Part shown: one piece after another, positions 21,901-49,821 of the stretch
Layout of the letters: each line of letters opens with the position of its first letter
Position numbering within the stretch: position 1 is the stretch's first letter
Assembly (NCBI GenBank): GCA_903959355.1
Contig: CAJBWJ010000032.1
Span: 1-51,838 of the forward strand
DNA: 51,838 nt
Reading direction: 5' to 3'
Source of the DNA: an uncultured bacterium
GTDB lineage: Bacteria; Patescibacteriota; Microgenomatia; UBA1400; PJMF01
The notes under the pieces: model-generated
The model's database searches: none
The model's input: only the letters and a program-made list of their open reading frames with translations
Told to the model about the DNA's origin: nothing
Made by a program: the position numbers and the translations under genes

Positions 21901-22571
21901 AAATGTGGTTTTTTGGCAATGAAGATAGCCCAGCTAACGTATTGAAAAAATCCAGTCCTCTTGTATTTCATGCATTTCTAAGACATGCTCACGCCACCAA
22001 AAGAGAGAGACCTGCTGATGTGGTCAAGATTTTTTCAGCCATAATGAAGGCAGTGGAGTCTTCTCTCGGAATTATCGGTAGCGGTCCTAAAGTTAATAGA
22101 GGTTTAGGTTCCGGATCAGTGAGCAAGGCTGTTGCTGTTGTTCATGAGTGGATGGAAGGTCATCATGACGAGCGTGTGTATAGCGATGGAAAACCAAATT
22201 GGGGAGAAGCAATCTCGAGAGGCCTAGGAGGCCAACCTATGCTTGATCCAAAAATTTGCGATGGTTTTACTCCATTATCTGGAAGTTGTTTTGATGCCAG
22301 GCAACCTCTACTGATTGATTACTTGAAGCTTCTTTGGGAAGATTTTTCTGAAGAATACACCACAAAAGAAAATCCAGATGGACTTGGCAAGTGGCCATTC
22401 GTAATAACAGCTGATTTAGGGATTAAATATGTTGCCTGGGCTCCATCCGAGGCCCCTATTAAGCTTAGTGGTAGAACTAATGAATGGACAGAAATTGTAG
22501 ATTGGTTTAGAGCTCGAATTCTGCGTAAAGAGCCAGTCTCATCCCCTCTTAAAAGACCTAAGTTTGATTGA
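18924..22571 (+). CDS. 1215-aa hypothetical cytoplasmic protein (no TM, no signal peptide, no recognisable domain)
   Basis: Long uninterrupted ORF with codon and amino-acid usage like its neighbours. The N-terminal ~450 aa are acidic and coiled-coil-like. It is transcribed divergently from the T4SS-like operon and ends with TGA. Confidence 0.7.
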   Translation: MNPEAQTEYQRKLEEASEKVIANLKRKRDHLGLSYEELKDEIKASIKEKILPIADEYDSLLAGEINIDTPLAAISKKIKSAFEPVKEPIKKDEDEEDVDSESDDLESLKTYQKILDKIAFYTQAIAEIGKIKNEIVADPGFSKSNVVAGLAPFLDLFFEAGLKVDFVVTVEREGFDDPVELHKNDTILLKDIAMAIKLNKDARGARARRDIESFTESVFGRLQIPKDEVPTTPKRIISMLAKEFFNLVPDFKNLKVALIDQTIELAKKKKDTYEDSTQRINKNYEKIFNPKLGDLKTVLDDFGDDLTHRGYEKGKISKKKQDGLTDELNDKTKVVLMELGSMRRPVSEKKNSLNELLSLIQSYEEDFAANEDDEASGKIDKKELKRLQNSLQDKLILKASKIAKSIDLKKEQLEDSKELEQAKSTIKDEIYKADSVLIMYDFFQDELVRQRTLFIEEWGLDEFTKDIENREVDSLSPWEIVKYVIKKEVAFWTPLHQESDNEFLRALVDKIKYNFMEDGKGYESNGSRMGTDDDAWSNSEGRTIMGLLQTYALYASSIHGEHFAEGKKDELFNNLRAFKITREGLYGETLGHPVYGPYLTKIMEISQYLPTLRQGSLPPIAILSDLNLLKSKMIPDQYEIFKDRLGRAVNPSRLVVLHERNVIREGKSIKLAADRFVKDDDGNWAFYPGEETLPTDQLILTSNPDFSYQTLSGNIGRTVASRLHEFAAELIDNNPEQFGLTKDDIPKNEDNVFAVQTFAQFLFYSFPFLTKIYADYELQTQTASHTVKSETLNWNKLFSPLGEAIQDSDRYGLRSALMWIFVYYAPFKEGLFGASGNSTRINRIQKLMIAHQKFVFGEDAMSHIAGQLDAHNYFGLPLGFTTALDMIKISEGEISRLFGDIIHEDGRVNPGSFENPHKIGPKGDIDADDDGKKVEGLPAYDWDLFLLSAKAYLKLLETTIKDIEVGSLTLHDLEQGELNPITQLLFKVMGQFKMWFFGNEDSPANVLKKSSPLVFHAFLRHAHATKRERPADVVKIFSAIMKAVESSLGIIGSGPKVNRGLGSGSVSKAVAVVHEWMEGHHDERVYSDGKPNWGEAISRGLGGQPMLDPKICDGFTPLSGSCFDARQPLLIDYLKLLWEDFSEEYTTKENPDGLGKWPFVITADLGIKYVAWAPSEAPIKLSGRTNEWTEIVDWFRARILRKEPVSSPLKRPKFD

Positions 22572-22631: not shown

Positions 22632-24377
22632 TTAAGAACTTCCACCCTTACCTAGATTAGCGCCTGCGCTTGGAGTCTCTGTCTTTGCTTCAGCAGCTTT
22701 TCCATGACCTTCACCAGGCTTATTCTTCTCAAGGTTATGTTTATACATGTCTTCAGCCCAATTCTTTCTCAAAATGCTGCCGCTAGTGATGTCTTGTATT
22801 GTGGTATTTGCCGTACGACCCCATTCCATTCCTTCTCCAGCTCCACCAAGCATACCCTTAGATTTCATCTCTATTGCATTTCCATCACCATCATTCTGAC
22901 CTGTAATTGTTCCACCCATAATAGCGTGCGATAGAGCACCTCTAGCGCTTCCACCACCTTGCTTATAGTAGTTTTTATAATCTCTGTAAGCACTAACGCC
23001 TCCAGGAACTGCTTTGGCCACAGCACCTGCTACTGGCAAACTGGCATCAGCAATTGGTTTCATCTTGCCAAATGCACTGCTGGCTAACTGTCCAAATATT
23101 CCTTCATCCACGCCCATAGCTTTTTTGACCTGTTGCATGATCTCTGGAATGACCAATAAAACACCAATGCCAAGAATTACTGGAACAATGGCACCCTGGC
23201 CCTGGCCAACTAAAAATGGAGGCATAAAGCCACCACCAAAAGCTGTGTCTAGAGTTTGTCCGGTGCCTTGTAAAGCGCGAATTGGAGCAGTCAGCATTCT
23301 TTGTACTAATACACAAACTAAAACAACTGGCCAAAGAACTAGATTGCCTACCAGATCTTTAATCCATTTACCAAAAACATTCTTTCCAGGAAAAGCACCC
23401 ATCATTAAAACGATTGGCGAAAAAATAATTTGAATAAGTACAGCCACATAAGTTTTGACTAATTCGAAGAAAACCTTAAATGTGGCAAAAAGAATAGCAA
23501 TACCGATGATAACTGTACCAAGTAAACTAGACATCCAGGCAATAGCTTCACCAACCAGGCCAATATTTAAGGCATCTTCCATAAACTGTTCAATAGCATT
23601 TTGAGTAGCACCAGTAGTACCTTTAAACATTAGACCAACTAGGCCAAAAATATTTCGAGTAACAATATCTGTTCCTTCGGAGAAGAAACCAGCCAACATA
23701 TACATGGCGACATACATTAAATCAATCATAAAACCAGCAATGGCATAGGAAAAAGTAACAGCGAGCATGGCGACAATGACACTTGGAATGGCTTGTTGCG
23801 CGGTAATTGCGGCTTGGCCAACCTTAGTTCTAAACATGATCATAAAACCAATAATTAAGAAAATTAAAACAAAGAATAGATAAGCTAAATTGCGAAAAGC
23901 CTTCCAAGTTTCTAGGATTGGATCGAGAGCAGAGAAGCCTAAACCCTGAGCTTGAGCTTCTGGAATGATTTTGGCTGATCTCATGACATCGGCGACATAA
24001 ACGCGAGCACTAGCAGGTTGTTTGTAGAGAGCAACAATGCCTTTGTTGACATCACCAAGTACGCCATAACCAAGCTGCTTTTCCAAAGCTTTTCGCTCGG
24101 AAGTCGTAATATCTGCACTTTTTGGTATACCTGCCATGCCAACACTATGAAAAACCAATCCAGTAAAAATATTTGAAAGACTTTCTTGATCAAACTTTTC
24201 TTTATCTGCTTCTATTTTAGCAAAAGACTTAGCACTTTTTGTGCCAGAGGCGGTAGTAAAAATTCCTTGCAACCAATCGATAACGCTAGCTGCTTTGGCA
24301 GGCTTAGCTGACATGAAAAAACATGAGAAAACAAAAAATAAAATCAGCAGTAGGCGAGAGGCTTTTTTCTGCATCAT
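22632..24377 (-). CDS. VirB6/TrbL-like polytopic membrane protein with Gly-rich C-terminal tail
   Basis: The ORF track gives 22632-24455. The internal ATG at 24377 (or 24374) yields a textbook signal peptide MMQKKASRLLLILFFVFSCFFMSAKPAKA|AS. About 7-8 TM helices are followed by a ~130-aa Gly-rich soluble tail. Assignment rests on topology, size and neighbourhood, and no motif was verified. Confidence 0.5.
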   Translation of the reverse strand: MMQKKASRLLLILFFVFSCFFMSAKPAKAASVIDWLQGIFTTASGTKSAKSFAKIEADKEKFDQESLSNIFTGLVFHSVGMAGIPKSADITTSERKALEKQLGYGVLGDVNKGIVALYKQPASARVYVADVMRSAKIIPEAQAQGLGFSALDPILETWKAFRNLAYLFFVLIFLIIGFMIMFRTKVGQAAITAQQAIPSVIVAMLAVTFSYAIAGFMIDLMYVAMYMLAGFFSEGTDIVTRNIFGLVGLMFKGTTGATQNAIEQFMEDALNIGLVGEAIAWMSSLLGTVIIGIAILFATFKVFFELVKTYVAVLIQIIFSPIVLMMGAFPGKNVFGKWIKDLVGNLVLWPVVLVCVLVQRMLTAPIRALQGTGQTLDTAFGGGFMPPFLVGQGQGAIVPVILGIGVLLVIPEIMQQVKKAMGVDEGIFGQLASSAFGKMKPIADASLPVAGAVAKAVPGGVSAYRDYKNYYKQGGGSARGALSHAIMGGTITGQNDGDGNAIEMKSKGMLGGAGEGMEWGRTANTTIQDITSGSILRKNWAEDMYKHNLEKNKPGEGHGKAAEAKTETPSAGANLGKGGSS

Positions 24378-24485
24378 AAGACAAGTATATTTTAGAGTAA
24401 GTAGGGTGAAACTGCAAAAGATAAATAGAATTAAATAAGACAAGTCTATTGACAATTTTTATAAAAACATTTAAAACAATCATAG

Positions 24486-25340
24486 ATGATCGATCAAGCA
24501 CAAACTGATAAATTTAAGGAAATTCTAGGGTTAAGTAAAAATACTTTAGTTATTTTTCCAGAAACCAAAGATCTCGATTTGTTTTTAGCTAGTTATTGTC
24601 TTTATTCTTTTTTGTCTTCAAATAGTGATGCTAGGTTACTTAGTCCAAAATTTAAGCAAAAACTTCCTACTGAGCTTCTTGATTTAGTTGAAAGTAAAAA
24701 AATCGAAACTGAACTTGGTAAAGAAAATTTATTGATGAGTTTTCCTTATCAAGAAGAACAGGTTGATAATGTTTCTTATTACATTGGCGAGCAAGACAAG
24801 CGCTTTTATTTGACTATAAAGCCGAAAAAAGGCGTCACTCCTCTCGATAGTTCCAAAGTTGAATTTTCATACGCCGGCAGCCAAGCTGATCTGTTGATTT
24901 TATGTGGAGTAGAGGATTTGGAAAAATTAGGGCAATTGTATTTTGCTTATGAAAATCTTTACAAAAGCGTTAACAATCATTTAGTAACAATCAATAATTT
25001 TATTCCTGACTTTGGCAATTTGAATTTAGACATTTCTCCAACCAGCTCTTACTCTGAAGCTGTTTTTTATTTGCTTAAGAACTTAGATGGAGAAGATCAA
25101 GACATTTTAGCTAAAAGTGATATCCCAACGCTGCTCCTTTATGGCATTGAATATAAAAGTCGTGGACTACAATCATTTGATGTAAACGCTAATACTTTTT
25201 TGGCAGTAGCTCAACTGCTTCAGCTTGGGGGAATGCGTTTGTTCAAATTGGATATAAAAACCAAAGAATCTAGTCTCGCAAATTCTTTGAAAAAAAGCCA
25301 AAAAATTATTGACCAGAACCAGATTCATTTAATAAAATAG
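24486..25340 (+). CDS. hypothetical cytoplasmic protein
   Basis: 284 aa with no TM. Faint resemblance to the DHH/NrnA N-domain layout, but the catalytic DHH/DxD motifs are absent. The 3' end overlaps the convergent 974-aa gene by 35 nt. Confidence 0.5.
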   Translation: MIDQAQTDKFKEILGLSKNTLVIFPETKDLDLFLASYCLYSFLSSNSDARLLSPKFKQKLPTELLDLVESKKIETELGKENLLMSFPYQEEQVDNVSYYIGEQDKRFYLTIKPKKGVTPLDSSKVEFSYAGSQADLLILCGVEDLEKLGQLYFAYENLYKSVNNHLVTINNFIPDFGNLNLDISPTSSYSEAVFYLLKNLDGEDQDILAKSDIPTLLLYGIEYKSRGLQSFDVNANTFLAVAQLLQLGGMRLFKLDIKTKESSLANSLKKSQKIIDQNQIHLIK

Positions 25341-28230
25341 CTGTAGTAAGCGAGCCGGGTCTCTCGTACTTTGGATATTTTCTTCCTTCACTCAAAGTCT
25401 GACAAATGCTCGAATTAGAATAGCAATATTTAGCCGCATCAGTTATCAATTGTTCCTTTTTTTCATCTGTGAAACCATATTCTGCTTGAGACTGGTCTAA
25501 ACTACTTCGCAATTCTGACATTACCTCTGGAGTTGGGTCTGTGTTACAACTAAATTCCGTGTAATCCAAACAATAAACCAGATCCATGTCGCTGTGTCTT
25601 TCATCAATCCAGCCGAGTGGATGTGGATGGTCTTCCGAATAGAATTTTGGAGGACATTTGCCACCAGCTTTCCAACGAGTTTCTCTGGCACAATTTTGAT
25701 TACCCATGCCATTGTAGTCGCCAATAGCTCCAGTCAACGATTCATAATCGATGTTATTTTTATCAAATGAACCCTGCCATTTGCTTATCAAGTGTTCCAT
25801 GGCTGCTTTAGCATCTTCTTTTAATGTTCCTCTTAGTGATCCGCCATCAAAAACTGATTTGGTTGGATCAAGTCCGGCCTCAGTCCAATGAATTCCAGCA
25901 ACTACTTCGCAGGGAATACCAGTTTCTTTTTCTGCGTATTCATAAGCCTCAATTAATTCTGGAGTAATTTGAATTGCTATTTCTGCAGTGAAAATATCTT
26001 TGGCATATTGAGGAATTTGAGTGGCGCTCGGTAAATTTTTGATATTTTTATATCCCTCACCACTACAAAATGATTTGTTTGCTCCGCCTATTGGATCGCC
26101 TTTGCAGCGACCAAGAAACATATCCTCAACTCTTTGACAGGAAAGGATGTAATCGTAGGTTTGATTAAAGGTATTACGCAATTTTTGTTGAATTTTACGC
26201 ACCATGAATCCAAGGCCAAAGTCTGGAATGAGCAAGTTTCCTTTGCTTGAACTTTCATTTTTACTGGTGGTGTCGCTAAAACCAAAACCAAAAGTATAGT
26301 GAGAGCAAGTCTCAACTAAATCTGTGTACCAACCGCCGTTTTTGTCTTTTTTAATTACTTCTTTATATTCACACTTATCTATTGGATTGATTTGTTGAGA
26401 GGTGCTTATGCCAAAAGTAGCATCTTTAATGGTGTAATATTTTGGAATGGCTCCTTGTTTACTAGTTCCGTCTGGATTTGTCATATCTTCAATAACATTG
26501 GTTTTGATCATGTCGAAAAATTCTTCTTCACTCCAAAAAATACTCAGAGCTTTGTTAACGTCTTTGACATTTTCTCCAATTGGCACAACTAAATAGGCAT
26601 TAACAATCATTGGAGGATCGAGTGGAGGACGGTCTTCATCGACAGTGAGTTCCCATTCAAATGGATTTAAAAATTTCGATCTTAATTTATTAGCAACTTC
26701 AGTATTAGAATCACTGGTGTAGCTGTATTGCCTCATATCTTTTGAAGCTGGTGTAAAAAGATCGCCTGCATTTTCCCAGTTCAGATCTTCTTGATTAAAA
26801 ATCATTTCAATTGCGCTGGCGGTGGCTTGTCTCTCATTTACTCCAAAACCGGATGCATCTATTTCTTCTCCGGCATCAGTAGTAGTGCTTTCTATAATTC
26901 TAAGAGTATCGTTTCTACATTTTGGAGAAGTGCCGTTAATAATGTCGATGAGAACTTTTTCAAGTGGCTTGATGCATTTTGGATATGGACAGTGAATAAC
27001 AGGATCTGGTTTAGTTTGAGCCAAGCTATAAATCATGTCTCTTTTGTCTTTTTGATCTGCAAGGTCTTTGTCGTTTTGTTCTTTTGGTTGCAAAATCATC
27101 TTGGTTAGCTCAAGAGAATCAATGTTGCCAGAAATTCTGGATTTGTTGGTGGCAAAATCTGGAATTTTAAAAGCGATGAAAATAGGAGCGTGTATTTTAA
27201 GATCAATCTGAGGCTTTTCTTGTAAAAAATAAAATTTATCGCCATCATCATCCTTTCCAGGATCTTGAGTTGGAACTAAAACAAGAAAAGCCAATCGATA
27301 TAAAGTATCCAAATCGATAGGCATTCTACCCACAGCTTCTCTCAATTTGGCAATTTTATTAATATCTACATTTGGAGGAGTGTATCCAGTATCAACGCTG
27401 TTTGCCGCATTATCTCCTCCAGCTATATCGAAGCAAACCTGTTGATATAGCTTTTCTTTGCTTAATTCTGGACGAATTTCTTGAAACCAACTTAGTAGGT
27501 CGGTCATTTTAAAATCAACATTTTCGACATGTTCTGTTGATGTCATGCTTCCAATCTCTGAATCTGTAACAACTCTACTGCTTCCATTCGTATCAACGGC
27601 AATTTTAAAATTATATTTTTTGTTAATAGTGCACTCATCGGTTACTTCGTTACAAATTTGCTCTATAGATACAAGATTTTGTGTTTTGGCCAAACACTGC
27701 TGATAAGAGGATAAGACTCTTTTCGCCACACCGGAAGAATTTAACATATAACTATCTTGAACGGTTTGATAATTAGCACCGAACATGCCTTCAAGTGAGC
27801 TGTTTTTTTGAGTTGTGTTTTTATCTTCCATGCCGCGGAACATTGGAATGCGAGCCTTGGTGAGATCTACAATATAAGGATCAACTCCTCCAAATATTGT
27901 GGGATTCAGGCCATTGTAAAAACTTTCTTCTGGAGGAGTACTACTGCTAAAGAACTTTTCAATATTTCCAAGCAGTTTCTTATCAATAGTCCACTGCATG
28001 GCTGCGCAATGTGCCTCGTAGCCCTGATCTTTGACCATGGCTATTAGGAGGTCACCATAATTGTAGCTTGGGCCTTTTGGCAGAAACATCGGCATGAGCG
28101 TAAAAGCATTTGCAGAATCTCCAATCTCCGAATCAGCGCTTTGAGCAAAAACAATGTTTTTTGAGGAAAAAATCAAAACTAAAAAATAGAATAAACTAAA
28201 AATCGCTCTTTTTGAAAATCGATTAAACAC
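25306..28230 (-). CDS. 974-aa secreted Cys-rich protein with possible lytic-transglycosylase-like C-terminal region
   Basis: GTG start at 28230. Signal peptide MFNRFSKRAIFSLFYFLVLIFSSKNIVFA|QS. The C-terminal segment AEKETGIPCEVVAGIHWTEAGLDP resembles the MltB/SLT_2-type motif (yGVP.e.i.aI...E..fG). Confidence 0.45.
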   Translation of the reverse strand: MFNRFSKRAIFSLFYFLVLIFSSKNIVFAQSADSEIGDSANAFTLMPMFLPKGPSYNYGDLLIAMVKDQGYEAHCAAMQWTIDKKLLGNIEKFFSSSTPPEESFYNGLNPTIFGGVDPYIVDLTKARIPMFRGMEDKNTTQKNSSLEGMFGANYQTVQDSYMLNSSGVAKRVLSSYQQCLAKTQNLVSIEQICNEVTDECTINKKYNFKIAVDTNGSSRVVTDSEIGSMTSTEHVENVDFKMTDLLSWFQEIRPELSKEKLYQQVCFDIAGGDNAANSVDTGYTPPNVDINKIAKLREAVGRMPIDLDTLYRLAFLVLVPTQDPGKDDDGDKFYFLQEKPQIDLKIHAPIFIAFKIPDFATNKSRISGNIDSLELTKMILQPKEQNDKDLADQKDKRDMIYSLAQTKPDPVIHCPYPKCIKPLEKVLIDIINGTSPKCRNDTLRIIESTTTDAGEEIDASGFGVNERQATASAIEMIFNQEDLNWENAGDLFTPASKDMRQYSYTSDSNTEVANKLRSKFLNPFEWELTVDEDRPPLDPPMIVNAYLVVPIGENVKDVNKALSIFWSEEEFFDMIKTNVIEDMTNPDGTSKQGAIPKYYTIKDATFGISTSQQINPIDKCEYKEVIKKDKNGGWYTDLVETCSHYTFGFGFSDTTSKNESSSKGNLLIPDFGLGFMVRKIQQKLRNTFNQTYDYILSCQRVEDMFLGRCKGDPIGGANKSFCSGEGYKNIKNLPSATQIPQYAKDIFTAEIAIQITPELIEAYEYAEKETGIPCEVVAGIHWTEAGLDPTKSVFDGGSLRGTLKEDAKAAMEHLISKWQGSFDKNNIDYESLTGAIGDYNGMGNQNCARETRWKAGGKCPPKFYSEDHPHPLGWIDERHSDMDLVYCLDYTEFSCNTDPTPEVMSELRSSLDQSQAEYGFTDEKKEQLITDAAKYCYSNSSICQTLSEGRKYPKYERPGSLTTAILLNESGSGQ

Positions 28231-28257: not shown

Positions 28258-29157
28258 CTAGGAAAGAATGCGAATGCCAAAAATTAATTCTAATAATTGA
28301 GCAATCCAGTAAGCTGCAAACAATAGAATAAAGCCTAGAATAGCTGCCGTAATTCTTTGTTTTCCCTCATCAATTGATTTGGAATTAGTAGCTCCAGTAA
28401 GCATTTGAAAGCCTCCTAAAACGAGAACCACAAAGAGAATAATTCCAGCGATTGGAAAAATGAATCCACCAAGAGCTTTGGAAATAATTCCACCAGGAGT
28501 AGTTAAGTCGCCGTCACCTCCACCAATCGTGATCGGATTGAGACCATTCAGTGTTCCTGCTGAAACGGTGGCGCTACTGATCCCGACGTCAGTGCTTTCG
28601 CATTTGCCATCTCTTTCCCAGCCACAGCAGGTTTTTCCGCCAGTCATTGGTACTTCGCCTCCACCACCTCCGCAAATACACTTTTTATCCTCAGTAGTGA
28701 GATAAGTTTCACCACAAAAAGCAGTGGTGTCATCAGGATTTGCAGTTAAGCATTGATCAAAAAAATCTCCGTCTTTGACCCAGCCGCAACAAACATCACG
28801 ATTAACAATCCATAAAATATTTGATTGTTGATAGGACTGCCATTGTCCTCCCTCGCAATTACAAGTTGCACCTTCTGGAACAGTGGCATCGCCTAAAGTT
28901 TCTCCGCAGCCATATTCGTTTGGATCTTCGTAAGCTCGACATTTGCCGCCACCCATAAACCCACAGCAATATTGAGTTCTAATTCCGTGACCTATCTGTT
29001 CAGTGGTTAGATTTGTACTTTCGCAATCACACATTCCTACGATATTAGCGTCATCTGCAGCAGTGAAATATTGTCCACAAGTGGCTGCCTTAGCGGCTCC
29101 AATAAAAAATAAGCTAAAAATTATCTGTAAAAAAGCTATTTTTATAATTTTTTTCAT
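28258..29157 (-). CDS. VirB2/TrbC-like 'T4SS pilin' hairpin fused to a Cys-rich repeat ectodomain
   Basis: 299 aa. Signal peptide MKKIIKIAFLQIIFSLFFIGAAKA|A. Three internal repeats of CxC...CCG[FW]...GxC. The C-terminal two-helix hairpin is GGFIFPIAGIILFVVLVLGGFQMLTGATNSKSIDEGKQRITAAILGFILLFAAYWIAQLL. GGAG lies 8 nt upstream of the ATG. Confidence 0.6.
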   Translation of the reverse strand: MKKIIKIAFLQIIFSLFFIGAAKAATCGQYFTAADDANIVGMCDCESTNLTTEQIGHGIRTQYCCGFMGGGKCRAYEDPNEYGCGETLGDATVPEGATCNCEGGQWQSYQQSNILWIVNRDVCCGWVKDGDFFDQCLTANPDDTTAFCGETYLTTEDKKCICGGGGGEVPMTGGKTCCGWERDGKCESTDVGISSATVSAGTLNGLNPITIGGGDGDLTTPGGIISKALGGFIFPIAGIILFVVLVLGGFQMLTGATNSKSIDEGKQRITAAILGFILLFAAYWIAQLLELIFGIRILS

Positions 29158-29159
29158 GA

Positions 29160-30044
29160 TTACACTCCAAATCCTGGAATATGTAGTATAGATACTCCAA
29201 TGAATTGCAAAATAGTGACTGAAAAAATTACGAATAAGAGACCGATGACTGCAGAAGTGATAATTTCTTTGGCCTCTTTTGTTTTATTTGGGTCTCCTTG
29301 AGAGACGGAGAGCATGAAAGCTCCTACTAGAATCATCACCAGTACAATTCCGCCTCCCAGTCCTAGTCCAATGGTAATCACAACCTTAATAATGCTTTCT
29401 GGATTGCTAGGAATACAGCCAATAGCTGTCCAAATGCCTTTGGAGCTAAAACAATCAGCACAAGCTTGATACTGATCTGTGCCGGTTTTAATTTGTGCGC
29501 AGAGCTCATAACTGCCAATTAGACTTAGGTCTTCATTGCATTGCTCTGCAGAACATTGTGCTTGCACTGGCATTGAACTAGAAACAATAACAGTATTGTT
29601 TTCTGCTCCTTCAACCGAATCGTTTGAAAGATGGACCTCAAACTGATATGAGCAACCGCCTTTTATTTCTCTTCCAGGAATAGTGAAGTTTGTCTGTCCG
29701 TCAGTATAATCAAATAAAAGATATTTGAGGTCGTCTGTGGTTCCATCTAATTCAATTCCATCTGGCCAGCCACTACAACCACTGCTACCAATCAATCTGG
29801 CTTTTACTTTATGTTCTCCTTCTGGCAATGGAGTGCCATTGTTGAAAGCGAGGCCGGCGAGATTGATTGTCACATCTTCTCCAGCTACTACGCAGCCATT
29901 GAAGAAGTTACATTGTTTGCCATCACGAGATTGATAAGCCTCAACTGTCTCAATAATTGGAGCGGAATCAGCTGCAAGAACAAGGTCTTTACTCAATAAA
30001 AAAGAGAAACAAAAAAATCCAAAAACCAGAGCTATTTTTCTCAT
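29160..30044 (-). CDS. VirB2/TrbC-like 'T4SS pilin' hairpin fused to a different Cys-containing ectodomain
   Basis: The ORF track starts at GTG 30053. The ATG at 30044 is preceded by GAGGTGA at a 5-nt spacing and gives the signal peptide MRKIALVFGFFCFSFLLSKDLVLA|AD. The C-terminus GIWTAIGCIPSNPESIIKVVITIGLGLGGGIVLVMILVGAFMLSVSQGDPNKTKEAKEIITSAVIGLLFVIFSVTILQFIG is a two-helix hairpin as in CPR T4SS pilin families. Confidence 0.6.
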   Translation of the reverse strand: MRKIALVFGFFCFSFLLSKDLVLAADSAPIIETVEAYQSRDGKQCNFFNGCVVAGEDVTINLAGLAFNNGTPLPEGEHKVKARLIGSSGCSGWPDGIELDGTTDDLKYLLFDYTDGQTNFTIPGREIKGGCSYQFEVHLSNDSVEGAENNTVIVSSSMPVQAQCSAEQCNEDLSLIGSYELCAQIKTGTDQYQACADCFSSKGIWTAIGCIPSNPESIIKVVITIGLGLGGGIVLVMILVGAFMLSVSQGDPNKTKEAKEIITSAVIGLLFVIFSVTILQFIGVSILHIPGFGV

Positions 30045-30100
30045 TTTATTCACCTCTATATTAAATCATTAAAAAGCTTTAAAACCAAGCTATTATTTAG

Positions 30101-30112: not shown

Positions 30113-31828
30113 ATGTTCTTTTCCCGTAGATCTATTTTTTTTATTTCGTTCTTTAGCCTTTTGATAGGAATGATTCTTTTTAAACTGCCTTCTTTCGTCA
30201 GTGCAGAAGATGTTTGCAATTCGGTTGAGTCATGTGGAGCAGAAATAGATAAAATCTCAAAAGATCTGGAAGCCTCAAAAAACGCCACCACACCTCTAGA
30301 AAAAGAAGTTAATGCCCTCGAATCTCGCATAAATTCAGCCAAAGCAGGCATTGCCAAGGCCAAGAAACAAGCGGCTGACTTGGCAATAAGTATTGAAAGT
30401 AGAGAAAAAGACTTGGTTTATCATTATGAGATTTTTTCTAATCGCGTGGCAGAGTCATATAAAAGAAAACGCACCTTTAATCCCCTTAGCCTTTTTTTAT
30501 CTAGTCAAAGTGCTAGTCAACTAACCAAAGATTTAGCCTATCAAGAATCTGCTCGTGCTCAGGATGATCGTTTAATAAAATCCATATCTGAAGAGATCAA
30601 CAAATTAAATGAAGACAAGAAAAAACTTGAATCTGATCAAGTGCGCTTATCTGCTTTATCAGAAAAATTAGACAAACAAGCGGAGTTTTTTAAGGGAGAA
30701 ATAGCCAAGGCGAAGAGCTATCAAAGTGAATTGAACGGGAAAATTGCAGCTTTATCAGCCAAACAGCAATCGATTCTTGCAGAAAAATCTGGAACATTTC
30801 AGACCACTGTGGGAGATGTTCCTTTAGCTGACGATCCAGCCAGTAGGCCAGATTATAATCCTGGTTTTTCTCCAGCTTTTGCAGCGTTCAGTTTCGGTGC
30901 TCCACATTTTAAAGGAATGAGCCAGTATGGAGCTTTTGGTAGAGCAAAAAGCGGGCAAAATTATGAAACCATTCTTAAGGCCTATTATGGCAGCGGTATT
31001 GAAATTAAAGATCATAATCCTGACCAAACAATTACTGTTGATGGTTACGGACAATATTCTTTGGAAGAATATGCCAAGAGAATTTATGAATTGCCAAATA
31101 GTTGGGGTGATGATGGAGGAATGGAAGCACTTAAAGCTCAAGCAATCGCTGCTAGAAGTTATGTTCTAGCAAGAGGCGGCACAATTTGTGCAACTGAAGC
31201 TTGCCAAGTTTTTAAGCCAGGGGCAAAAGGTGGCAATTGGGAAAAAGCAGTTAATGAAACCAGAGGTAAAGTAGTTTATGCTAATGGCCAGCCATTTTCG
31301 ACTTGGTATTCTTCCACTTCGGGTGGATATCAGGAGTCATACTCTGCAAATGGCTACTCTACACCAGGATTTTGGGATACATCTAATGGCCGCAGTGGTT
31401 GGACTGGCCAAGCATATGAAAAAGTTGCTGGTTCTCCATGGTTTTATAAAGCTTGGTATAAAACTAGAGGCGGAGACAACTGTGGCAAAGACAGTCCTTG
31501 GTTAAGAAGCGAGGAAATGGCAGATATATTAAATGCTTGGGTAGTTATGTATCAAGGTAATGGAGATAGCGGCAGAGTAACTCCAGAATCATCTTGTTGG
31601 GGCGGTAATCCTTATAGTAAAAGCGATTTGTCAAATATTGGTGGTTTTAATAGTGTAAGTGGAGTCAGTGTCCAATATTCTGATAGTGGCACAACAGCCA
31701 ATGTTACATTTCAAACAAATAAAGGCAGCGTAACAATCAATGGCAATGAGTTTTATAAGGCTTTTAACCTAAGAGCTCCTGGCAGAATTTCTTTGAAGAG
31801 TGGCTTGTTTAATATCGAGAAAAAGTAG
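30113..31828 (+). CDS. SpoIID/LytB-domain protein with N-terminal coiled coil
   Basis: 571 aa with a signal peptide or anchor and ~200 aa of coiled coil. The SpoIID core is EALKAQAIAARSYVLARGGTICATEACQVF ... STSGGY. Confidence 0.8.
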   Translation: MFFSRRSIFFISFFSLLIGMILFKLPSFVSAEDVCNSVESCGAEIDKISKDLEASKNATTPLEKEVNALESRINSAKAGIAKAKKQAADLAISIESREKDLVYHYEIFSNRVAESYKRKRTFNPLSLFLSSQSASQLTKDLAYQESARAQDDRLIKSISEEINKLNEDKKKLESDQVRLSALSEKLDKQAEFFKGEIAKAKSYQSELNGKIAALSAKQQSILAEKSGTFQTTVGDVPLADDPASRPDYNPGFSPAFAAFSFGAPHFKGMSQYGAFGRAKSGQNYETILKAYYGSGIEIKDHNPDQTITVDGYGQYSLEEYAKRIYELPNSWGDDGGMEALKAQAIAARSYVLARGGTICATEACQVFKPGAKGGNWEKAVNETRGKVVYANGQPFSTWYSSTSGGYQESYSANGYSTPGFWDTSNGRSGWTGQAYEKVAGSPWFYKAWYKTRGGDNCGKDSPWLRSEEMADILNAWVVMYQGNGDSGRVTPESSCWGGNPYSKSDLSNIGGFNSVSGVSVQYSDSGTTANVTFQTNKGSVTINGNEFYKAFNLRAPGRISLKSGLFNIEKK

Positions 31829-31833
31829 TTTTT

Positions 31834-33618
31834 TTAAATACCTCGCAAGTATTTAGCTGCCCACGGTCTATAGCTACTGTGATAAGAATCTTCTCGTATT
31901 ATTTCGCCATTTTTATCTTTTATAACATTGGTAAATTCTGATTTAATGCCACTGGCTGACCAATCAATTTGCTTGAGTTGTCCAGGTCTTAAGCTAGCGT
32001 CTGGAATATAAACGGTTGGCAAAGCTGGACTTTGGCCCCATTTTCTATAATTAATTATTTCAGTGGAACGGCCATCACTCGTGCCATAAAGTTTACAAAA
32101 CATATATAAATTTTCACTATCACTTTGGCAATTAATTAAAATGTGATTGCTGGTGTCATTAATAAAACGCAGGTCAGTTTCACCTTCAAAAACTGTAGCA
32201 TCAAAACCTGGTTCATTGCCAATTTCATAATAAGAAACGCGATAGGCATGAGGAAGACGGCGAGTTACCTTAAGACCAGCATTGAGTAGAGAGCGAAATA
32301 GAGTGCTGCTGACCTGGCAAACTCCACCACCAGGAGCCAATTTAGTTTCTCCAGCTTCTATAATATAGGCGTTTTTATAACCAGTTTTATCAGAAACTTC
32401 TCCAAGTATTTTATTGAATGAAAATTCTTCTCCAGGTTTTACGATGTGGTTACTAATACGACTAGTGGCTAAAGCTACGTTGTCGACACGATTGGGAATG
32501 GAATGAGCATACCAGCTTTCACCAAAGCCAATCACTTCTTTAATACCGAGGTCGTTGGCTTTTTCTAAAGTTACCGTTGCTATGGTACTTTTCATTGGTA
32601 TAGAAAAAGAATTTTCTCCATTTATTTGTTCTTCATTTTCAATTTTGTTTAAAAAATCTTCAACTATTTTTTTTGTAGAAACAGCATCAATTTCTAAGCC
32701 ATTTTTATCTGCGGAAAAATCTGTAACCTCTAGAGTATCTTTATCATAAATAAAACTCGCGTCGCTACTTGGACGATTAATTTGTGCTTTCAAATTATCA
32801 ATAAATAAATCGATTTTTTCTTGATCCAAACCATTTGGCCAAGCTAGAAAATTCATTAGTTCTTGATTAGAAATATCAATTTTTTGATATTCGTAGCTAA
32901 GGGTTAATTTTTGATCAATTAATTTTAAAGCTCTGTTTTTGCTCATTTCAATTTGTGATTGATCGAGAGCTAAGATAGGATGAGCCATAATTGCTTCTAC
33001 ATTAAAATCTTCCTTGCTCAGGTCTCTTAAGTTTTTATTCAAAACTTGCTTGTGCAGGGTTTGCCAGGTTTCATCACTAAGCAATTTGTCGCCTGTTTTT
33101 CCAGGTAAAATTTCTACTGTTTTGTTTTTTATAGTTGCATTCGGCTTTTCGCCAGGAAAATCCACCAAATCTTTTAGGTTCCCAATTAAAGCTTGAATTT
33201 TTTCTTGATCAAAATTTAATTGGACATAGTATCTTGCAGTTTTTTTGAAAAAATTGCTCTGATGACTACTTTCAAAGGCTTCAATCAACACGTCGTCCAA
33301 ATTATTTTTAATTGCTAGCTGATTGAGCTTAGCTTCTACTTCTTTATCTTTATAAAAGATGCTTAAAGAATCATTCTCAAAATCAATTTTATCCTGCATG
33401 TTTTCTTGAATTTTTATTTTTGCCTCATCTCTGGTCAATCCAGAAAGATTGATATCATCAATGTATGTTTTTGGATAAAAACGATCTTGATAATATTGAA
33501 AATAAACAAAAATTAGCCAAGCACTTACAAATAACAACAATATCCCCAAGGAAAGAAGGGCAGTGTTTGGTTTTTTTTGATTCAAGCTCCGCTTGATTGA
33601 TGAGTAAATTTTATCCAT
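31834..33618 (-). CDS. VanW/YoaR-family protein, membrane anchored
   Basis: 594 aa with an N-terminal TM. VanW core GGGVCQVSSTLFRSLLNAGLKVTRRLPHAYRVSYY. Confidence 0.8.
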   Translation of the reverse strand: MDKIYSSIKRSLNQKKPNTALLSLGILLLFVSAWLIFVYFQYYQDRFYPKTYIDDINLSGLTRDEAKIKIQENMQDKIDFENDSLSIFYKDKEVEAKLNQLAIKNNLDDVLIEAFESSHQSNFFKKTARYYVQLNFDQEKIQALIGNLKDLVDFPGEKPNATIKNKTVEILPGKTGDKLLSDETWQTLHKQVLNKNLRDLSKEDFNVEAIMAHPILALDQSQIEMSKNRALKLIDQKLTLSYEYQKIDISNQELMNFLAWPNGLDQEKIDLFIDNLKAQINRPSSDASFIYDKDTLEVTDFSADKNGLEIDAVSTKKIVEDFLNKIENEEQINGENSFSIPMKSTIATVTLEKANDLGIKEVIGFGESWYAHSIPNRVDNVALATSRISNHIVKPGEEFSFNKILGEVSDKTGYKNAYIIEAGETKLAPGGGVCQVSSTLFRSLLNAGLKVTRRLPHAYRVSYYEIGNEPGFDATVFEGETDLRFINDTSNHILINCQSDSENLYMFCKLYGTSDGRSTEIINYRKWGQSPALPTVYIPDASLRPGQLKQIDWSASGIKSEFTNVIKDKNGEIIREDSYHSSYRPWAAKYLRGI

Positions 33619-38935: not shown

Positions 38936-41125
38936 TTAAAGATTTCTCTTTTTAGCGTATCTTTCACGACTGTTGCGAACAACTTTTTCTCTGTTTTGAT
39001 TGCTGCTTTTGGCGAGAGGCAGAGTATAGGCAGGGAAAGGACGGCTCAGCACGTTGTCGATAGAGATTTTATTGATGATCTGATGTTTATCCAAGTTGAC
39101 TAGGTCATCTTGAGTGTAGATTCCGCCATATTCTGCTTGGAAATAAGTGGCATCGCCAGCACCCATGACAAAACTAATAATGTTGCCACAGTTGCCAAAG
39201 ATAGCATTACGCACTTCTTCAGGAATTTGGTCAATGTATTGATTAGCGAGAGTTAGATTAAGATGATATTTACGAGCTTCAGAGAGAATTTTGATAAATG
39301 CATCAGTAGCAAAATTTTGAAATTCATCGACATATAAATAAAAGTCAGGACGCTTTTCTTCTGGAACATTAACTCTAGCCATGGCTGCTAATTGAATTTT
39401 GGTAATCATCATGGCTCCAAGCAGAGTGGCATTGTCTTCGCCGAGGCGGCCCTGAGATAGATTGACTAGTAATATTTTGCCCTGTGCCATTAACTCCTCA
39501 ATACTAAAAGAAGATTGATTGGTATTGACGACATTACGTACGATTGGGGATGAAACAAATTGACCAACTTTATTAAGAATAGAGGCAATGGATTCATTGC
39601 GTTGACGCTCTTGCATCTTATTATATTCATTAACCCAGAAGTTTTTTAAGATCGGATCATCAAGCTTTTCGACAATTTCGTCGCGGAATTTCTTATTGGT
39701 TAATAGATCTAACACATCTGACAATTTAGCTTCTTTGCTTTTGAGTAGAGTAAGCAAACAGTTGCGCAAAATATATTCAAGTCTTGGGCCCCAAGAATAA
39801 CTATAGAGTTTTTGGAAAACCGAGATAATACCGGAAGCGATTAGTTCACGATGAATAACATTCTCACCCTCGAATAAATTAATCTGTACAGTTCGATCCT
39901 GATCTGAAGGATCGAAATAAATTACATCATTAATGCGATGCTTTGGAATGAAATCCAATAAAGTTTCCACCAAGTCTCCATGTGGATCGATGACACAAAT
40001 ACCTTCATTGTGTTTGAGGTCATTGATGACCATATTTGCCAAGAGAGTGGACTTACCGGTGCCAGTTTTACCAATTACATAAACATGGCGGCGACGATCG
40101 TTTCTTAATAATCCATATTTAGTACTGCGGTTTTTATAAACAGTTTCAGCCAAGACATTGATTTCATTTTTAATTTCATCTGGAGTATCTTGATTAACGA
40201 CGGGCAATCTCTCTGGAGCTTCACCAAGAATCTTTTTACCCCAAGAAATATTGTGGATATTACCTAGTTTTTGACTTGGTAAGTGGAATAAGGTGGCGGT
40301 TTCATCAAGACTGAGACTTAATAAAGGAGAAGCACGGAAACTTCTTTTATTCATTCTGTTGAGAAAAATTCTCTTAAAAACATATCTATTTCTTAGACGA
40401 AGAGAGTTGCTTTCACTTTGACTAATGGCCTGGTAGGCAGCGTAGATATTTTCCATGAGCAACTTACTTTTTTTGCGATTATCGGTCGAAACAGCAATTT
40501 TAAAAGCAGTGTTGATTGTTCTTTTGTCTATTTTTTCTTGAATGAGGCTTTTTTGAGAGTGAGTTTCTAGTTTTTCAGATGAAATGCCATGATTTTTCGG
40601 CCAGAAGTCACTTTCATTATCTAAGACCATCTGAATAAGAATAGTGTCTTGACCATCATTTTTGGACAGAGTCGACATCAGGGTAGAAAGAGGATCGATG
40701 TCTTTGAATTCTTGATAAGTTTTAAGTGGCAGATAGCTGTGATTCTTGAGTTTTAAACTGGCCAGGCGAATAGCTTTTTTTGGTTCAAAAAAGAACTCAA
40801 CTGGATCAAATGATAGTTCAGAAATGACCGCTTCTGGATAGCTGGCATGAATGGCACCCTTAAAGTATTCAAGGATGCGCATTGGCACGTGAGCCAAGAA
40901 ATGAATGGTTTGCTCTCGCACCATGATTTCAAAACTTAGGCTTTCGTCTTGGCCGATTAGTTTGTAAAAAAGGTTGTTTTTCAGTTTTGGCAGAGTAGAG
41001 AAAAGCTGCACCGCAGTTTCCTCTGTTTCTTCGCTGTCTTTGCTAGTTCTGATCTCAAGTAGAATGTGGTTTTTTAGCACGCCTATAGTATAGCAAATTG
41101 ATGATAAAGATGACACGCTGCTCAC
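38936..41125 (-). CDS. VirD4/TraD/TraG-like (TrwB-type) coupling ATPase homolog lacking TM helices
   Basis: 729 aa with a GTG start. Walker A VIGKTGTGKSTLL (DNA ~40047-40078), then VIDPHGDL, FYLYVDEFQNF and LSEARKYHLNLTLANQY, as in T4CP / TraM-recognition-type ATPases. No hydrophobic N-terminal segment. Confidence 0.6.
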   Translation of the reverse strand: MSSVSSLSSICYTIGVLKNHILLEIRTSKDSEETEETAVQLFSTLPKLKNNLFYKLIGQDESLSFEIMVREQTIHFLAHVPMRILEYFKGAIHASYPEAVISELSFDPVEFFFEPKKAIRLASLKLKNHSYLPLKTYQEFKDIDPLSTLMSTLSKNDGQDTILIQMVLDNESDFWPKNHGISSEKLETHSQKSLIQEKIDKRTINTAFKIAVSTDNRKKSKLLMENIYAAYQAISQSESNSLRLRNRYVFKRIFLNRMNKRSFRASPLLSLSLDETATLFHLPSQKLGNIHNISWGKKILGEAPERLPVVNQDTPDEIKNEINVLAETVYKNRSTKYGLLRNDRRRHVYVIGKTGTGKSTLLANMVINDLKHNEGICVIDPHGDLVETLLDFIPKHRINDVIYFDPSDQDRTVQINLFEGENVIHRELIASGIISVFQKLYSYSWGPRLEYILRNCLLTLLKSKEAKLSDVLDLLTNKKFRDEIVEKLDDPILKNFWVNEYNKMQERQRNESIASILNKVGQFVSSPIVRNVVNTNQSSFSIEELMAQGKILLVNLSQGRLGEDNATLLGAMMITKIQLAAMARVNVPEEKRPDFYLYVDEFQNFATDAFIKILSEARKYHLNLTLANQYIDQIPEEVRNAIFGNCGNIISFVMGAGDATYFQAEYGGIYTQDDLVNLDKHQIINKISIDNVLSRPFPAYTLPLAKSSNQNREKVVRNSRERYAKKRNL

Positions 41126-41575: not shown

Positions 41576-41605
41576 ATTATATTTAAGTGATATTTTTTGT
41601 ATCAA
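41576..41605 (-). promoter_or_regulatory. near-consensus sigma70-type promoter (minus strand)
   Basis: Reverse strand TTGATA (41605-41600), 18-nt spacer, TATAAT (41581-41576). It points toward the coupling-ATPase gene 450 nt away. Confidence 0.4.
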
Positions 41606-41620
41606 ATTGTATAAGAATCT

Positions 41621-41690
41621 TCTGCGGAAGCTCGGTAGTTGGGCAGGCAACCGAGCTTCCGCAGAGGGTTCTTTATTTCTCTTTTTTCTT
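41621..41690 (+). terminator. strong GC-rich hairpin + T-rich tail (intrinsic-terminator-like)
   Basis: Perfect 15-bp stem TCTGCGGAAGCTCGG (41621-41635) / CCGAGCTTCCGCAGA (41651-41665) with a 15-nt loop, followed by GGGTTCTTTATTTCTCTTTTTTCTT. It is by far the most stable hairpin I noticed in this AT-rich window. Confidence 0.6.
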
Positions 41691-41691
41691 A

Positions 41692-41697
41692 TATAAT
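41692..41697 (+). promoter_or_regulatory. candidate -10 hexamer for the lipoprotein gene (leaderless geometry)
   Basis: TATAAT followed by 6 nt, then ATG at 41704. Confidence 0.35.
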
Positions 41698-41703
41698 TTT
41701 ATT

Positions 41704-42447
41704 ATGTTTAATCCTCAAGAACTTATTTCTGGATTTTTAAAAGATCAAAACAAAGAACCAAAAAAAGATCAGCGCAAGCGTTCTCCGATTGTTTTAAGAA
41801 TAGAAATTGCTGTTATATTTGCCTTGGCTGGAAGCTTAATAAGTGGTTGTTCTGTTCTTGAAAATAGAGCCAAAGAGAGAATAGCGTCTGCAGGCGTACC
41901 TCCAGCAGTCGCCAATGATCCAGACCTAATCTGGCAAGCTTCAAATGGAGCAACTGATGAAGAGTTGCGAAGTTATGCTAACAGCTTATTGTTGGGAAGA
42001 GAAAGAGAGCTCAATCAGGCGATGGCGACGCAGCAGGCAGAGAAAGAAGCGGCTGCTTTTGCTACACCAACGGCTACGCAAGAACCAGAGATAAACGAAT
42101 TTAAGCCAAAGACTCAAATTAATTTTGAAAAAATAACCGACGGAGTTTATAGTTTTCAGACTGATTCAAATATTGAGATAACTGATCCAGGTTTTATTTT
42201 ATATATAAAGAATACTTTGAAGAAATTGGAAAATTTAGAAAATATCAGAGTTTTCATCTCTGTTATAGATGATGCTACTGGAGTGACTCAAATCGTTCTT
42301 GACTCGACAGCTTCTGACTATAAAGAAGCAAACGGACCGCTCTTTGCTTATGTAGGAGATAAAGTCTTCATTGCTGCCGACGGAGCAGCTTTAACCGAGT
42401 TACTAGATTCGCAGGGAATTAAACATAAAACTTTCGGATTACCATAA
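41704..42447 (+). CDS. lipoprotein, function unknown
   Basis: ATG at 41704 gives MFNPQELISGF...IAVIFALAGSLISGC|SVLEN (lipobox). The ORF-track start at 41587 would translate through the terminator hairpin and was rejected. Confidence 0.6.
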   Translation: MFNPQELISGFLKDQNKEPKKDQRKRSPIVLRIEIAVIFALAGSLISGCSVLENRAKERIASAGVPPAVANDPDLIWQASNGATDEELRSYANSLLLGRERELNQAMATQQAEKEAAAFATPTATQEPEINEFKPKTQINFEKITDGVYSFQTDSNIEITDPGFILYIKNTLKKLENLENIRVFISVIDDATGVTQIVLDSTASDYKEANGPLFAYVGDKVFIAADGAALTELLDSQGIKHKTFGLP

Positions 42448-48534: not shown

Positions 48535-48561
48535 CGTATGTTAAGATTAAACTATAAAAAG

Positions 48562-49242: not shown

Positions 49243-49258
49243 ATATAAACTTAAAGTT

Positions 49259-49819: not shown

Positions 49820-49821
49820 TT

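Follow-up and report, generated by a model that had tools for sequence, protein, structure and literature searches.

The 51,838-nucleotide stretch analysed here (the window; contig CAJBWJ010000032.1 of assembly GCA_903959355.1) is a segment of a Patescibacteria (phylum Minisyncoccota) chromosome around the replication origin oriC, with yidC, dnaN and dnaA, and it encodes two adjacent proteins, designated pB and pA, that are best explained as two conserved paralogous subunits (types B and A, respectively) of PF18895, the Patescibacteria type IV secretion system (T4SS) 'pilin' family. Both proteins share an architecture that comprises a signal peptide, a ~200 amino acid Cys-rich ectodomain and a C-terminal helix–loop–helix hairpin. 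It is, in our judgement, highly probable that pA and pB belong with the T4SS as PF18895 hairpin proteins whose variable ectodomains are exposed. The longer chain of reasoning that leads to a host-contacting structure built from both proteins by the T4SS we rate slightly above an even chance, and polymerisation into a fibre slightly below one. The two genes and their hairpins are as follows.

29160..30053 (minus strand): pB, type B T4SS_pilin-family protein; open reading frame (ORF) of 297 amino acids as listed; PF18895 at 29.9 bits.
28258..29157 (minus strand): pA, type A T4SS_pilin-family protein; ORF of 299 amino acids; PF18895 at 32.6 bits.
29163..29402 (minus strand): pB hairpin, residues 218–297; helix, invariant loop QGDPNKTKEAKE, helix, tail IPGFG; PF18895 over residues 230–285; AlphaFold2 (AF2) model.
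28261..28494 (minus strand): pA hairpin, residues 222–299; helix, loop NSKSIDEGKQR, helix, tail GIRILS; PF18895 over residues 227–289; AF2 model.

An earlier note on this DNA, made from the sequence alone, had described two tandem hairpin proteins with different ectodomains. Both ORFs are indeed real and intact, with the layout described: they are co-oriented on the minus strand, pB first, and separated by a gap of 2 nt. The true start of pB is most likely the ATG at 30044, three codons downstream of the listed GTG, giving a protein of 294 amino acids, because the GTG sits within the Shine–Dalgarno (SD) sequence AGAGGTGA and because a 294 amino acid database entry (P0091) agrees with the shorter form. 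AxA-type signal-peptide cleavage sites can be read from the sequence of each protein (AKA/A in pA, VLA/A in pB), leaving mature proteins of ~270 amino acids each. A hydropathy check of the window's genes revealed no hairpin gene besides these two. None of the DNA repeats within the window involves pA or pB, and an origin of the pair by a diversity-generating retroelement or by recent duplication was dropped for that reason. A promoter and terminator scan performed no better than on shuffled sequence, and tRNA and Rfam scans of the window were empty.

Two hairpin types of one family

The curated gathering cutoff of PF18895 is 26.6 bits and both proteins pass it, with matches that fall exactly on the two hairpins, bearing out the earlier assignment to the 'T4SS pilin' family of the candidate phyla radiation. 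In addition, all 41 of the hairpin-only family members that were scanned match PF18895 (best E 9e-11). The T4SS-locus context typical of this family, near virB4 and often near dnaA, is present too, the window containing VirB4-, TrsD-, PrgI- and VirD4-like genes together with dnaA and dnaN. AF2 places the helices at residues 222–255 and 262–293 of pA and 218–250 and 255–289 of pB, in agreement with hydropathy.

Types A and B are mutually homologous (hhalign probability 97.3%, E 2e-11) and each has a recognisable signature: …LNP…STPGGIISRAL…FPIAG…GKQRITAA…YWIAQL… in type A and …GIWTAxGCIP…SQGDPNKTKEAKE…IPGFG in type B.

Conservation rises towards the hairpin

Database searches for full-length relatives identified 90 pA-type and 478 pB-type proteins from independent assemblies (NCBI, JGI, ENA, Logan), all but a few of which retain the fusion of ectodomain and hairpin. 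The earlier note had named separate genes in relatives as the sign of an assembly fusion; with hundreds of fused full-length relatives, the fusion must be considered genuine. An assembly or gene-calling artefact that joined separate ectodomain and hairpin genes is accordingly a negligible prospect: we found no point in its favour, and it is ruled out by the fused relatives, by the fact that complete proteins carrying the 6-Cys unit described below all end in a hairpin, and by the identical architecture on contigs of 841 kb and 320 kb.

Across relatives, the hairpins are 82–84% identical and the ectodomains 35–46%. In both proteins conservation climbs stepwise from the distal domain through the juxtamembrane segment to the hairpin with its two transmembrane helices (TM1 and TM2), as the mean pairwise identities show.

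pA: distal 0.44; juxtamembrane 0.62; TM1 0.83; loop 0.77; TM2 plus tail 0.89.
pB: distal 0.32; juxtamembrane 0.52; TM1 0.73; loop 0.97; TM2 plus tail 0.89.

In the pB loop, each of the 12 columns is conserved. An invariant loop is not something that a plain membrane anchor needs, and this points to the hairpin being more than an anchor, with the loop probably having a specific partner that is either cytoplasmic (VirB4 or TrsD, for example) or lumen-lining. A second candidate contact site lies ahead of the pA hairpin.

28468..28578 (minus strand): pA pre-hairpin segment, residues 194–230, LNP...STPGGIISKAL; AF2 pLDDT below 50; identity 0.62.

In this segment 35% of columns are at least 90% conserved and the motif is retained in distant type A proteins. 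Disordered in the AF2 monomer yet conserved family-wide, the segment may be an interface, since such behaviour is typical of regions that fold on assembly. Orthologues in these comparisons are 55–65% identical, a level at which dN/dS is saturated.

Two unrelated ectodomains

The ectodomain of pA is made up of three copies of a small Cys-rich unit.

28939..29079 (minus strand): pA 6-Cys unit 1, residues 27–73; invariant CG...CxC...CCG...C skeleton.
28750..28908 (minus strand): pA 6-Cys unit 2, residues 84–136; CG...CxC...CCG...C skeleton.
28600..28716 (minus strand): pA 6-Cys unit 3, residues 148–186; CG...CxC...CCG...C skeleton.

Three Cys repeats had been recognised in pA before and they are real, each having six cysteines and a leading CG that was missed at the time. 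The full unit reads CG…CxC…CCG[FWY]…C: its eight skeleton positions are the same in all 57 repeat sequences and everything outside the skeleton varies, mean column identity being 25%. Orthologues of pA contain 6, 12, 18 or 24 cysteines, equivalent to one to four units, with up to five units in distant proteins. AF2 models the units as small beta units (pLDDT about 80–90). When 1.84 billion representative proteins were searched exhaustively with a profile, the 6-Cys unit turned up in 12 clusters only, and each complete 6-Cys protein of these clusters terminates in a pilin hairpin, which may be type A, type B or divergent. Restriction of the unit to hairpin proteins of several types implies a rare, exclusive module that has been shuffled between hairpin types. 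Judged by these sequence searches, the 6-Cys unit is a new and very lineage-restricted disulfide-rich domain.

The pB ectodomain is quite different and can be divided into two parts.

29574..29969 (minus strand): pB ectodomain, residues 29–160; immunoglobulin (Ig)/fibronectin type III (FN3)-like beta-sandwich that varies among relatives and has conserved Cys pairs; AF2 and Foldseek.
29403..29573 (minus strand): pB Cys-rich neck, residues 161–217; six invariant cysteines, GIWTAxGCIP, just before TM1; identity 0.52.

The sandwich is modelled by AF2 with pLDDT mostly above 90; together with the conservation of its Cys pairs in relatives, this upholds the earlier description of the second ectodomain as unrelated to the first, beta-rich and Cys-paired. 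In the neck, the invariant residues are C167, C172, C185, C198, C201 and C213 plus W208, T209 and A210. Foldseek searches with pB return weak, generic matches to FN3, an insect beta-glucan-recognition domain, TapA and the Wzt carbohydrate-binding domain (E about 2e-3, TM 0.2–0.5). Neither ectodomain matches a Pfam family at E<=1.

An obligate gene pair and a conserved third gene

A type B profile scan of species-representative genomes identified 186 loci, 80 of which were surveyed with their flanks (locus numbers are given below with the prefix L). The 80 loci contain 312 hairpin ORFs with lengths of 66–543 amino acids. Exactly two hairpin genes are present in 53 loci, and in 52 of these 53 the genes are adjacent in the order B→A. 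The remaining surveyed loci have arrays of 4–12 hairpin genes. A homologue of the 974 amino acid protein encoded next to pA in the window is found immediately downstream of the type A gene in 33 loci.

25306..28230 (minus strand): third gene of the module, encoding a 974 amino acid secreted protein; starts 27 nt after pA, with homologues at the same place.

In L001 and L003, on contigs of 841 kb and 320 kb, the order is SpoIID, then B→A followed by a gene for a protein of ~965 amino acids. The two hairpin proteins are thus distinct paralogues whose B→A pairing is obligate and is accompanied by another conserved gene, all of which had been overlooked when the window was first read. The 974 amino acid protein has no match in Pfam, NCBIfam, PHROG or the PDB, even as an 18-sequence profile. 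A resemblance of its C-terminus (GIHWTEAG) to lytic transglycosylases was considered and is unsupported, there being no domain match as sequence or as profile.

Pairing of this kind bears on the main alternative to a fibre, in which pA and pB are stoichiometric, non-polymerising T4SS components or membrane-anchored adhesins whose ectodomains span the wall or touch the host; the hairpin would dock a set number of copies of each protein into the membrane complex of the T4SS, or into the membrane next to it, and a fibre would not arise. We consider this alternative possible if rather doubtful. The strict 1:1 pairing of B and A would suit a defined hetero-complex as well as a heteropolymer, but the arrays of 4–12 genes in other lineages, which are reminiscent of pilin and antigen-variation systems, tell against it.

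The number of residues ahead of the hairpin differs between the types: it is almost always large in type B, with a median of about 279, and ranges from bare to about 440 in type A. Ectodomain size is also reciprocal within pairs. In L022–L027, L049, L066, L068 and L083 a bare type A protein of 131–162 amino acids with 0 Cys accompanies a type B protein of 391–439 amino acids. In L006–L017 the type A proteins have two to four 6-Cys units and the type B proteins are about 290–300 amino acids long, with an exception of 214 amino acids in L015.

Relatives are labelled Ca. Pacebacteria, Microgenomatus, Woesebacteria, Paceibacterota or Patescibacteria. Many metagenome-assembled genomes with this module are titled 'uncultured Pseudomonadales bacterium', one is titled 'Limisphaerales' and the complete genome CP011212.1 is titled 'candidate division TM6' (L005–L084); these appear to be mislabels by submitters or in the taxonomy.

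Strong Shine–Dalgarno sites

The earlier claim that pA and pB have the two best SD sites of the window stands up to calculation of anti-SD pairing energies for its 33 genes.

30050..30057 (minus strand): SD of pB, AGAGGTGA; −10.1 kcal/mol, rank 1 of 33.
29163..29168 (minus strand): SD of pA, GGAGTG, situated in the final pB codons; −6.9 kcal/mol, rank 2 of 33.

Third place is taken by a site of only −4.2 kcal/mol; pairing is weaker than −3.5 kcal/mol in 27 of the 33 genes and close to 0 in most, so that SD-led initiation seems to be kept for few genes in this lineage. The placement of the pA site in the last pB codons fits translational coupling. Enrichment extends to the type A genes of relatives, with a median of −6.4 kcal/mol against −3.0 for background ORFs, and 56% of these genes against 16% of the background have a site at or below −6. 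The strength of the sites in pA and pB suggests a high copy number, which would be unusual for a channel component and so argues against non-polymerising, stoichiometric proteins.

Comparison with known secretion-system pilins

PF18895 proteins have been met before in Patescibacteria. In Ca. Southlakia epibionticum ML1 the T4SS cluster includes a pilin array, and array and cluster alike are essential (PMC10633639). A large survey found PF18895 pilins near virB4 in 1,135 assemblies (Quinonero-Coronel et al. 2025, PMC12102498) and counted 441 arrays of 2–11 genes, notably in Microgenomatia and Saccharimonadia, with T4SS loci near dnaA; the pilin was treated as a small protein and no adhesins were reported (PMC12102498). 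In the part of the survey supplement considered here, the 'VirB2' calls for Patescibacteria are all made with PF18895, with 309 occurrences against 0 for PF04956 (PMC12102498). PF18895 is also abundant in freshwater (structure-clustering preprint). Gram-positive T4SSs normally lack a pilus (Wang et al. 2023, PMC10633639), and the presence of a VirB2-like pilin in a monoderm has been flagged as remarkable in both studies and in a 2025 review (PMC10633639, PMC12102498, PMC12857230). Publications of 2023–2025 have thus already covered both the PF18895 pilin arrays at Patescibacteria T4SS loci and how surprising a pilin is in a monoderm. The ectodomains, the 6-Cys unit, the A/B dichotomy and the conserved trio of genes are not described in the literature we searched.

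The published Patescibacteria proteins (Southlakia ML1, the Sec-secreted array of TM7x and the arrays of the 2025 survey) resemble pA and pB in belonging to PF18895, in lying in an oriC-proximal T4SS locus of a monoderm and in forming tandem, sequence-divergent paralogues. They differ in having been published as small, VirB2-size proteins without adhesins, whereas here each subunit has an ectodomain of ~200 amino acids; in addition, the window has a fixed heterotypic B→A pair with a partner of ~970 amino acids, and its lineage is Pacebacteria/Microgenomatia-like rather than Saccharimonadia.

The likeness to classical conjugative pilins (VirB2/TrbC/TraA; PF04956; T-pilus 8EXH/8CUE, F-pilus) is one of layout and context. 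The signal peptide, two hydrophobic helices and short polar loop are common to both, as is linkage to VirB4, VirB3 and VirD4-type genes. The VirB2/TrbC layout proposed in the earlier note survives in this sense, whereas sequence homology to VirB2/TrbC is not demonstrable. Full-length pA and pB have no match to PF04956 at E<=1, nor did comparison with the TrbC/VirB2 families reveal any significant similarity. With isolated hairpins, PF04956 gives sub-threshold matches to 13 of 20 type A sequences (best E 1e-4; pA 15.9 bits against a cutoff of 27.9) and to none of type B. Size differs markedly as well. The 120 PF04956 proteins found with VirB2 span 85–128 amino acids including the signal peptide, in line with the size contrast drawn in the earlier note, and mature VirB2 (~70 amino acids) is essentially the hairpin; pA and pB have 294–299 amino acids. 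The loops of their hairpins are longer than those of VirB2, TrbC or TraA, and near-invariant.

Another family for comparison is that of the Mbov_0395 pilin-like proteins of mycoplasma integrative and conjugative elements (ICEs; NCBIfam NF045849). All 21 type B and 13 of the 20 type A hairpins match this family with E-values down to 4e-9, although scores are sub-threshold (26.2 bits for pB, 19.2 for pA and at most 28.5 among the hairpin-only scores shown, against a cutoff of 40) and do not amount to membership. The 80 amino acid, two-transmembrane profile spans the whole hairpin, and these proteins likewise occur in a monoderm or wall-less T4SS context; in contrast to pA and pB, they consist of the hairpin only (the profile has 80 positions). 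Two further proteins of the window weakly match neighbouring ICE families: that encoded at 22632–24455 (minus strand) matches the Mbov_0396 transmembrane protein (E 4.5e-4) and the TrsD-like protein at 11443–12936 (minus strand) matches Mbov_0397, a VirB4 N-terminus (E 1e-6). Because the families Mbov_0395, Mbov_0396 and Mbov_0397 are consecutive in the ICE, the hairpin protein may be native to the monoderm MPF-FATA-type T4SS. These sequence matches hint that the hairpin belongs to monoderm T4SSs and was not borrowed from diderm VirB2, a question left open by the 2025 survey.

The T4SSs most closely related to that of Patescibacteria, those of Gram-positive type (MPF-FATA), are without a pilus (PMC12102498). 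The sub-threshold similarity of the hairpins to NF045849, the size of the ectodomains beside a mature VirB2 of ~70 amino acids and the lack of homology to solved pilins are likewise in keeping with stoichiometric, non-polymerising components. Mycoplasma ICEs are not known to make pili, which counts on the same side.

Adhesin-bearing pilus subunits of other kinds, namely type IV pilins with globular heads, two-domain chaperone–usher adhesins and VirB5/CagL tips, combine a conserved module for polymerisation or anchoring with a variable, often disulfide-bonded receptor-binding domain. This is an analogy only, as their folds and assembly machines are unrelated to those considered here.

A proposed T4SS-assembled, host-contacting structure

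Taken together, these features suggest the following sequence of events. Both proteins would be exported by Sec and their signal peptides cleaved; the hairpin would then be inserted in the membrane, its polar loop on the cytoplasmic side and the ectodomain exposed at the exterior, a topology suggested by the sequence features and by analogy with VirB2. The ATPase and channel of the T4SS (VirB4, TrsD and the VirB3-like and VirB6-like proteins) would engage the invariant hairpin and loop. Both subunits would be built into an extracellular structure, most likely a short tube or pilus of VirB2 type and otherwise an envelope-spanning stalk; we infer this assembly from where the genes lie, from their obligate pairing and strong SD sites and from the way conservation rises towards the hairpin. 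Juxtamembrane segments (the B neck and LNP...STPGG of A) would make contacts between subunits. The disulfide-stabilised distal domains, that is, the Ig-like sandwich of B and the 6-Cys units of A, would face outward and bind molecules on the host surface, a placement suggested by their variability and modularity and by the weakly Ig/carbohydrate-binding-module (CBM)-like fold. Rapid ectodomain divergence and changes in copy number might then track host specificity. The ~970 amino acid protein could be a third partner, either a tip or adhesin or a wall-penetration factor, as its conserved synteny suggests.

To judge from the structures of the F- and T-pilus, any extension at the N-terminus of a subunit would point outwards from a pilus of VirB2 type. 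A geometric estimate that starts from a ~8.6 nm core of VirB2 type, with some 5 subunits to every 13 Å and ~25 kDa carried on each, suggests that full decoration would be sterically possible, giving a modelled fibre of 15–19 nm. Cryo-electron tomography has revealed a barb-tipped tube or 'lance' of ~9 nm, its composition not known, that joins a Saccharimonadia parasite to its host (PMC11880426). The observation of such a tube in one Patescibacterium tells against components that do not polymerise and gives circumstantial support to the notion that cells of this kind make tubes with the calibre of a conjugative pilus, the dimensions of the F- and T-pilus being the yardstick.

A number of results weigh against such a structure. 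The hairpins cannot be linked to conjugative pilins by sequence: hhalign of the type A or type B hairpin profile with VirB2 or with a VirB2-clade alignment gives a probability of 0.2–0.5%, the VirB2 profile being one of low diversity. (The query was A. tumefaciens VirB2, its sequence checked against PDB 8EXH/8CUE; homology searches with it gave only relatives at least 79% identical, hence the narrow profile, and tblastn against plasmids was equally undiverse.) Searches of all PDB sequences with hairpin sequences and profiles (phmmer, hmmsearch) found no conjugative pilin, the best match being transmembrane helices 5–6 of a G protein-coupled receptor (GPCR), which is compositional, and the sub-threshold TrbC matches are no stronger than such GPCR helix-pair matches (E 0.002). 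Foldseek with the full-length models of pA and pB likewise found no pilin. Mature subunits of ~270 amino acids would have roughly four times the length of the VirB2-type pilins characterised so far. At 11–12 amino acids, the loops of pA and pB are longer than those of VirB2 or TraA. No filament of PF18895 proteins has been seen so far, and the type B genes of relatives show no general SD enrichment. As for host binding, what speaks for it is the set of weak Ig/CBM-like fold matches of pB at E about 2e-3; the pA model has no structural neighbour in the PDB or BFVD by Foldseek (every E>1).

A further alternative is that pA and pB are general surface or envelope proteins (surface-layer or wall-associated proteins, for instance) anchored by two transmembrane helices, their proximity to the T4SS being incidental and a reflection of high expression near oriC. 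The genes are ~17 kb from virB4 and their neighbours on the other side are peptidoglycan-related (SpoIID, VanW/PG_binding_4), homology to VirB2 is not demonstrated and the Pfam name 'T4SS pilin' was itself arrived at by inference. Proximity to virB4 recurs in 1,135 assemblies, however (PMC12102498), and the Southlakia array lies inside the T4SS cluster and is essential with it. Similarity to an ICE conjugal-transfer family is consistent, if sub-threshold, and the genes between virB4 and pA encode large orphan secreted or membrane proteins, one of them weakly matching the ICE transmembrane protein. We consider it improbable that the two are envelope proteins of this general kind.

In its most developed form, the T4SS-assembled structure of pA and pB would be a heteropolymeric tube of two obligatory hairpin subunits made by Microgenomatia-type Patescibacteria, each subunit having a globular, disulfide-locked domain so that the shaft itself is the adhesin, the first such VirB2-type filament. 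Host range would be tuned by shuffling 6-Cys modules (0–5 copies) and Ig-like modules between the two conserved hairpins, and the tip would consist of the co-transcribed ~970 amino acid protein, which may be the 'barb' visible in cryo-electron tomography of Patescibacteria lances. We put this forward tentatively and think it less likely to be right than wrong. The only Patescibacterium that is genetically tractable cannot live as an epibiont without its T4SS and pilin array. Should the pilin-family proteins themselves bear the variable, exposed binding domains, the adhesins that the 2025 survey could not find in these loci are hidden inside the pilins, and the Ig-like sandwich, the 6-Cys units and the ~970 amino acid partner become candidates for what determines host specificity, all of them expressible. 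Together, B, A and the partner would also be a defined minimal module for structural work.

The secretion locus and neighbouring genes

Core T4SS genes identified in the window are listed below; none was found there for VirB5, VirB7, VirB9 or VirB10.

9205–11433 (minus strand): VirB4-like; Pfam P-loop_TraG / CagE_TrbE_VirB among the core-gene matches.
11443–12936 (minus strand): TrsD-like; NCBIfam TrsD.
12961–13815 (minus strand): PrgI/VirB3-like; Pfam PrgI.
38936..41125 (minus strand): VirD4/TrwB-like coupling protein; Pfam TrwB_AAD_bind and TraG-D_C.

The PrgI/VirB3-like protein has 284 amino acids and possesses a C-terminal CarboxypepD_reg (Ig-like) domain, so that at this locus fusion to an extracytoplasmic beta-sandwich is seen in another small membrane component of the T4SS as well. 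Five T4SS-locus proteins have no Pfam or PHROG match: 13853–14860 (minus strand, 335 amino acids), 14877–18728 (minus strand, 1283 amino acids), 18924–22571 (plus strand, 1215 amino acids), 24486–25340 (plus strand, 284 amino acids) and the 974 amino acid partner at 25306–28230 (minus strand). Three of the five were scanned against NCBIfam, where they have no match. A protein of ~1220–1250 amino acids in the equivalent position in relatives has a weak or faint match to Peptidase_M23.

Divergent from pB is the gene for a SpoIID-domain protein whose N-terminal part is a long coiled coil (30113–31828, plus strand), beside which lies that for a VanW/PG_binding_4 protein (31834–33618, minus strand); both are found at the same position in L001 and L003. 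The two proteins may supply VirB1-like peptidoglycan remodelling, a function often missing in the 2025 survey.

Further away, a near-perfect inverted repeat at 41613–41673 (24-nt arms, 92% complementary, 13-nt spacer) lies at the start of an ORF of 286 amino acids without a Pfam match (41587–42447); it could be a regulatory hairpin or terminator, and the start of the ORF may be miscalled. Finally, three consecutive classical type IV pilin or pseudopilin genes (N_methyl motif, T2SSG) are located at 48538–50283 (plus strand), adjoining a gene for a Gly-rich-domain protein (50280–51377, minus strand). The conserved N-termini of the pilin genes make up DNA repeat family D1, and these genes represent a filament system separate from the T4SS 'pilins'.

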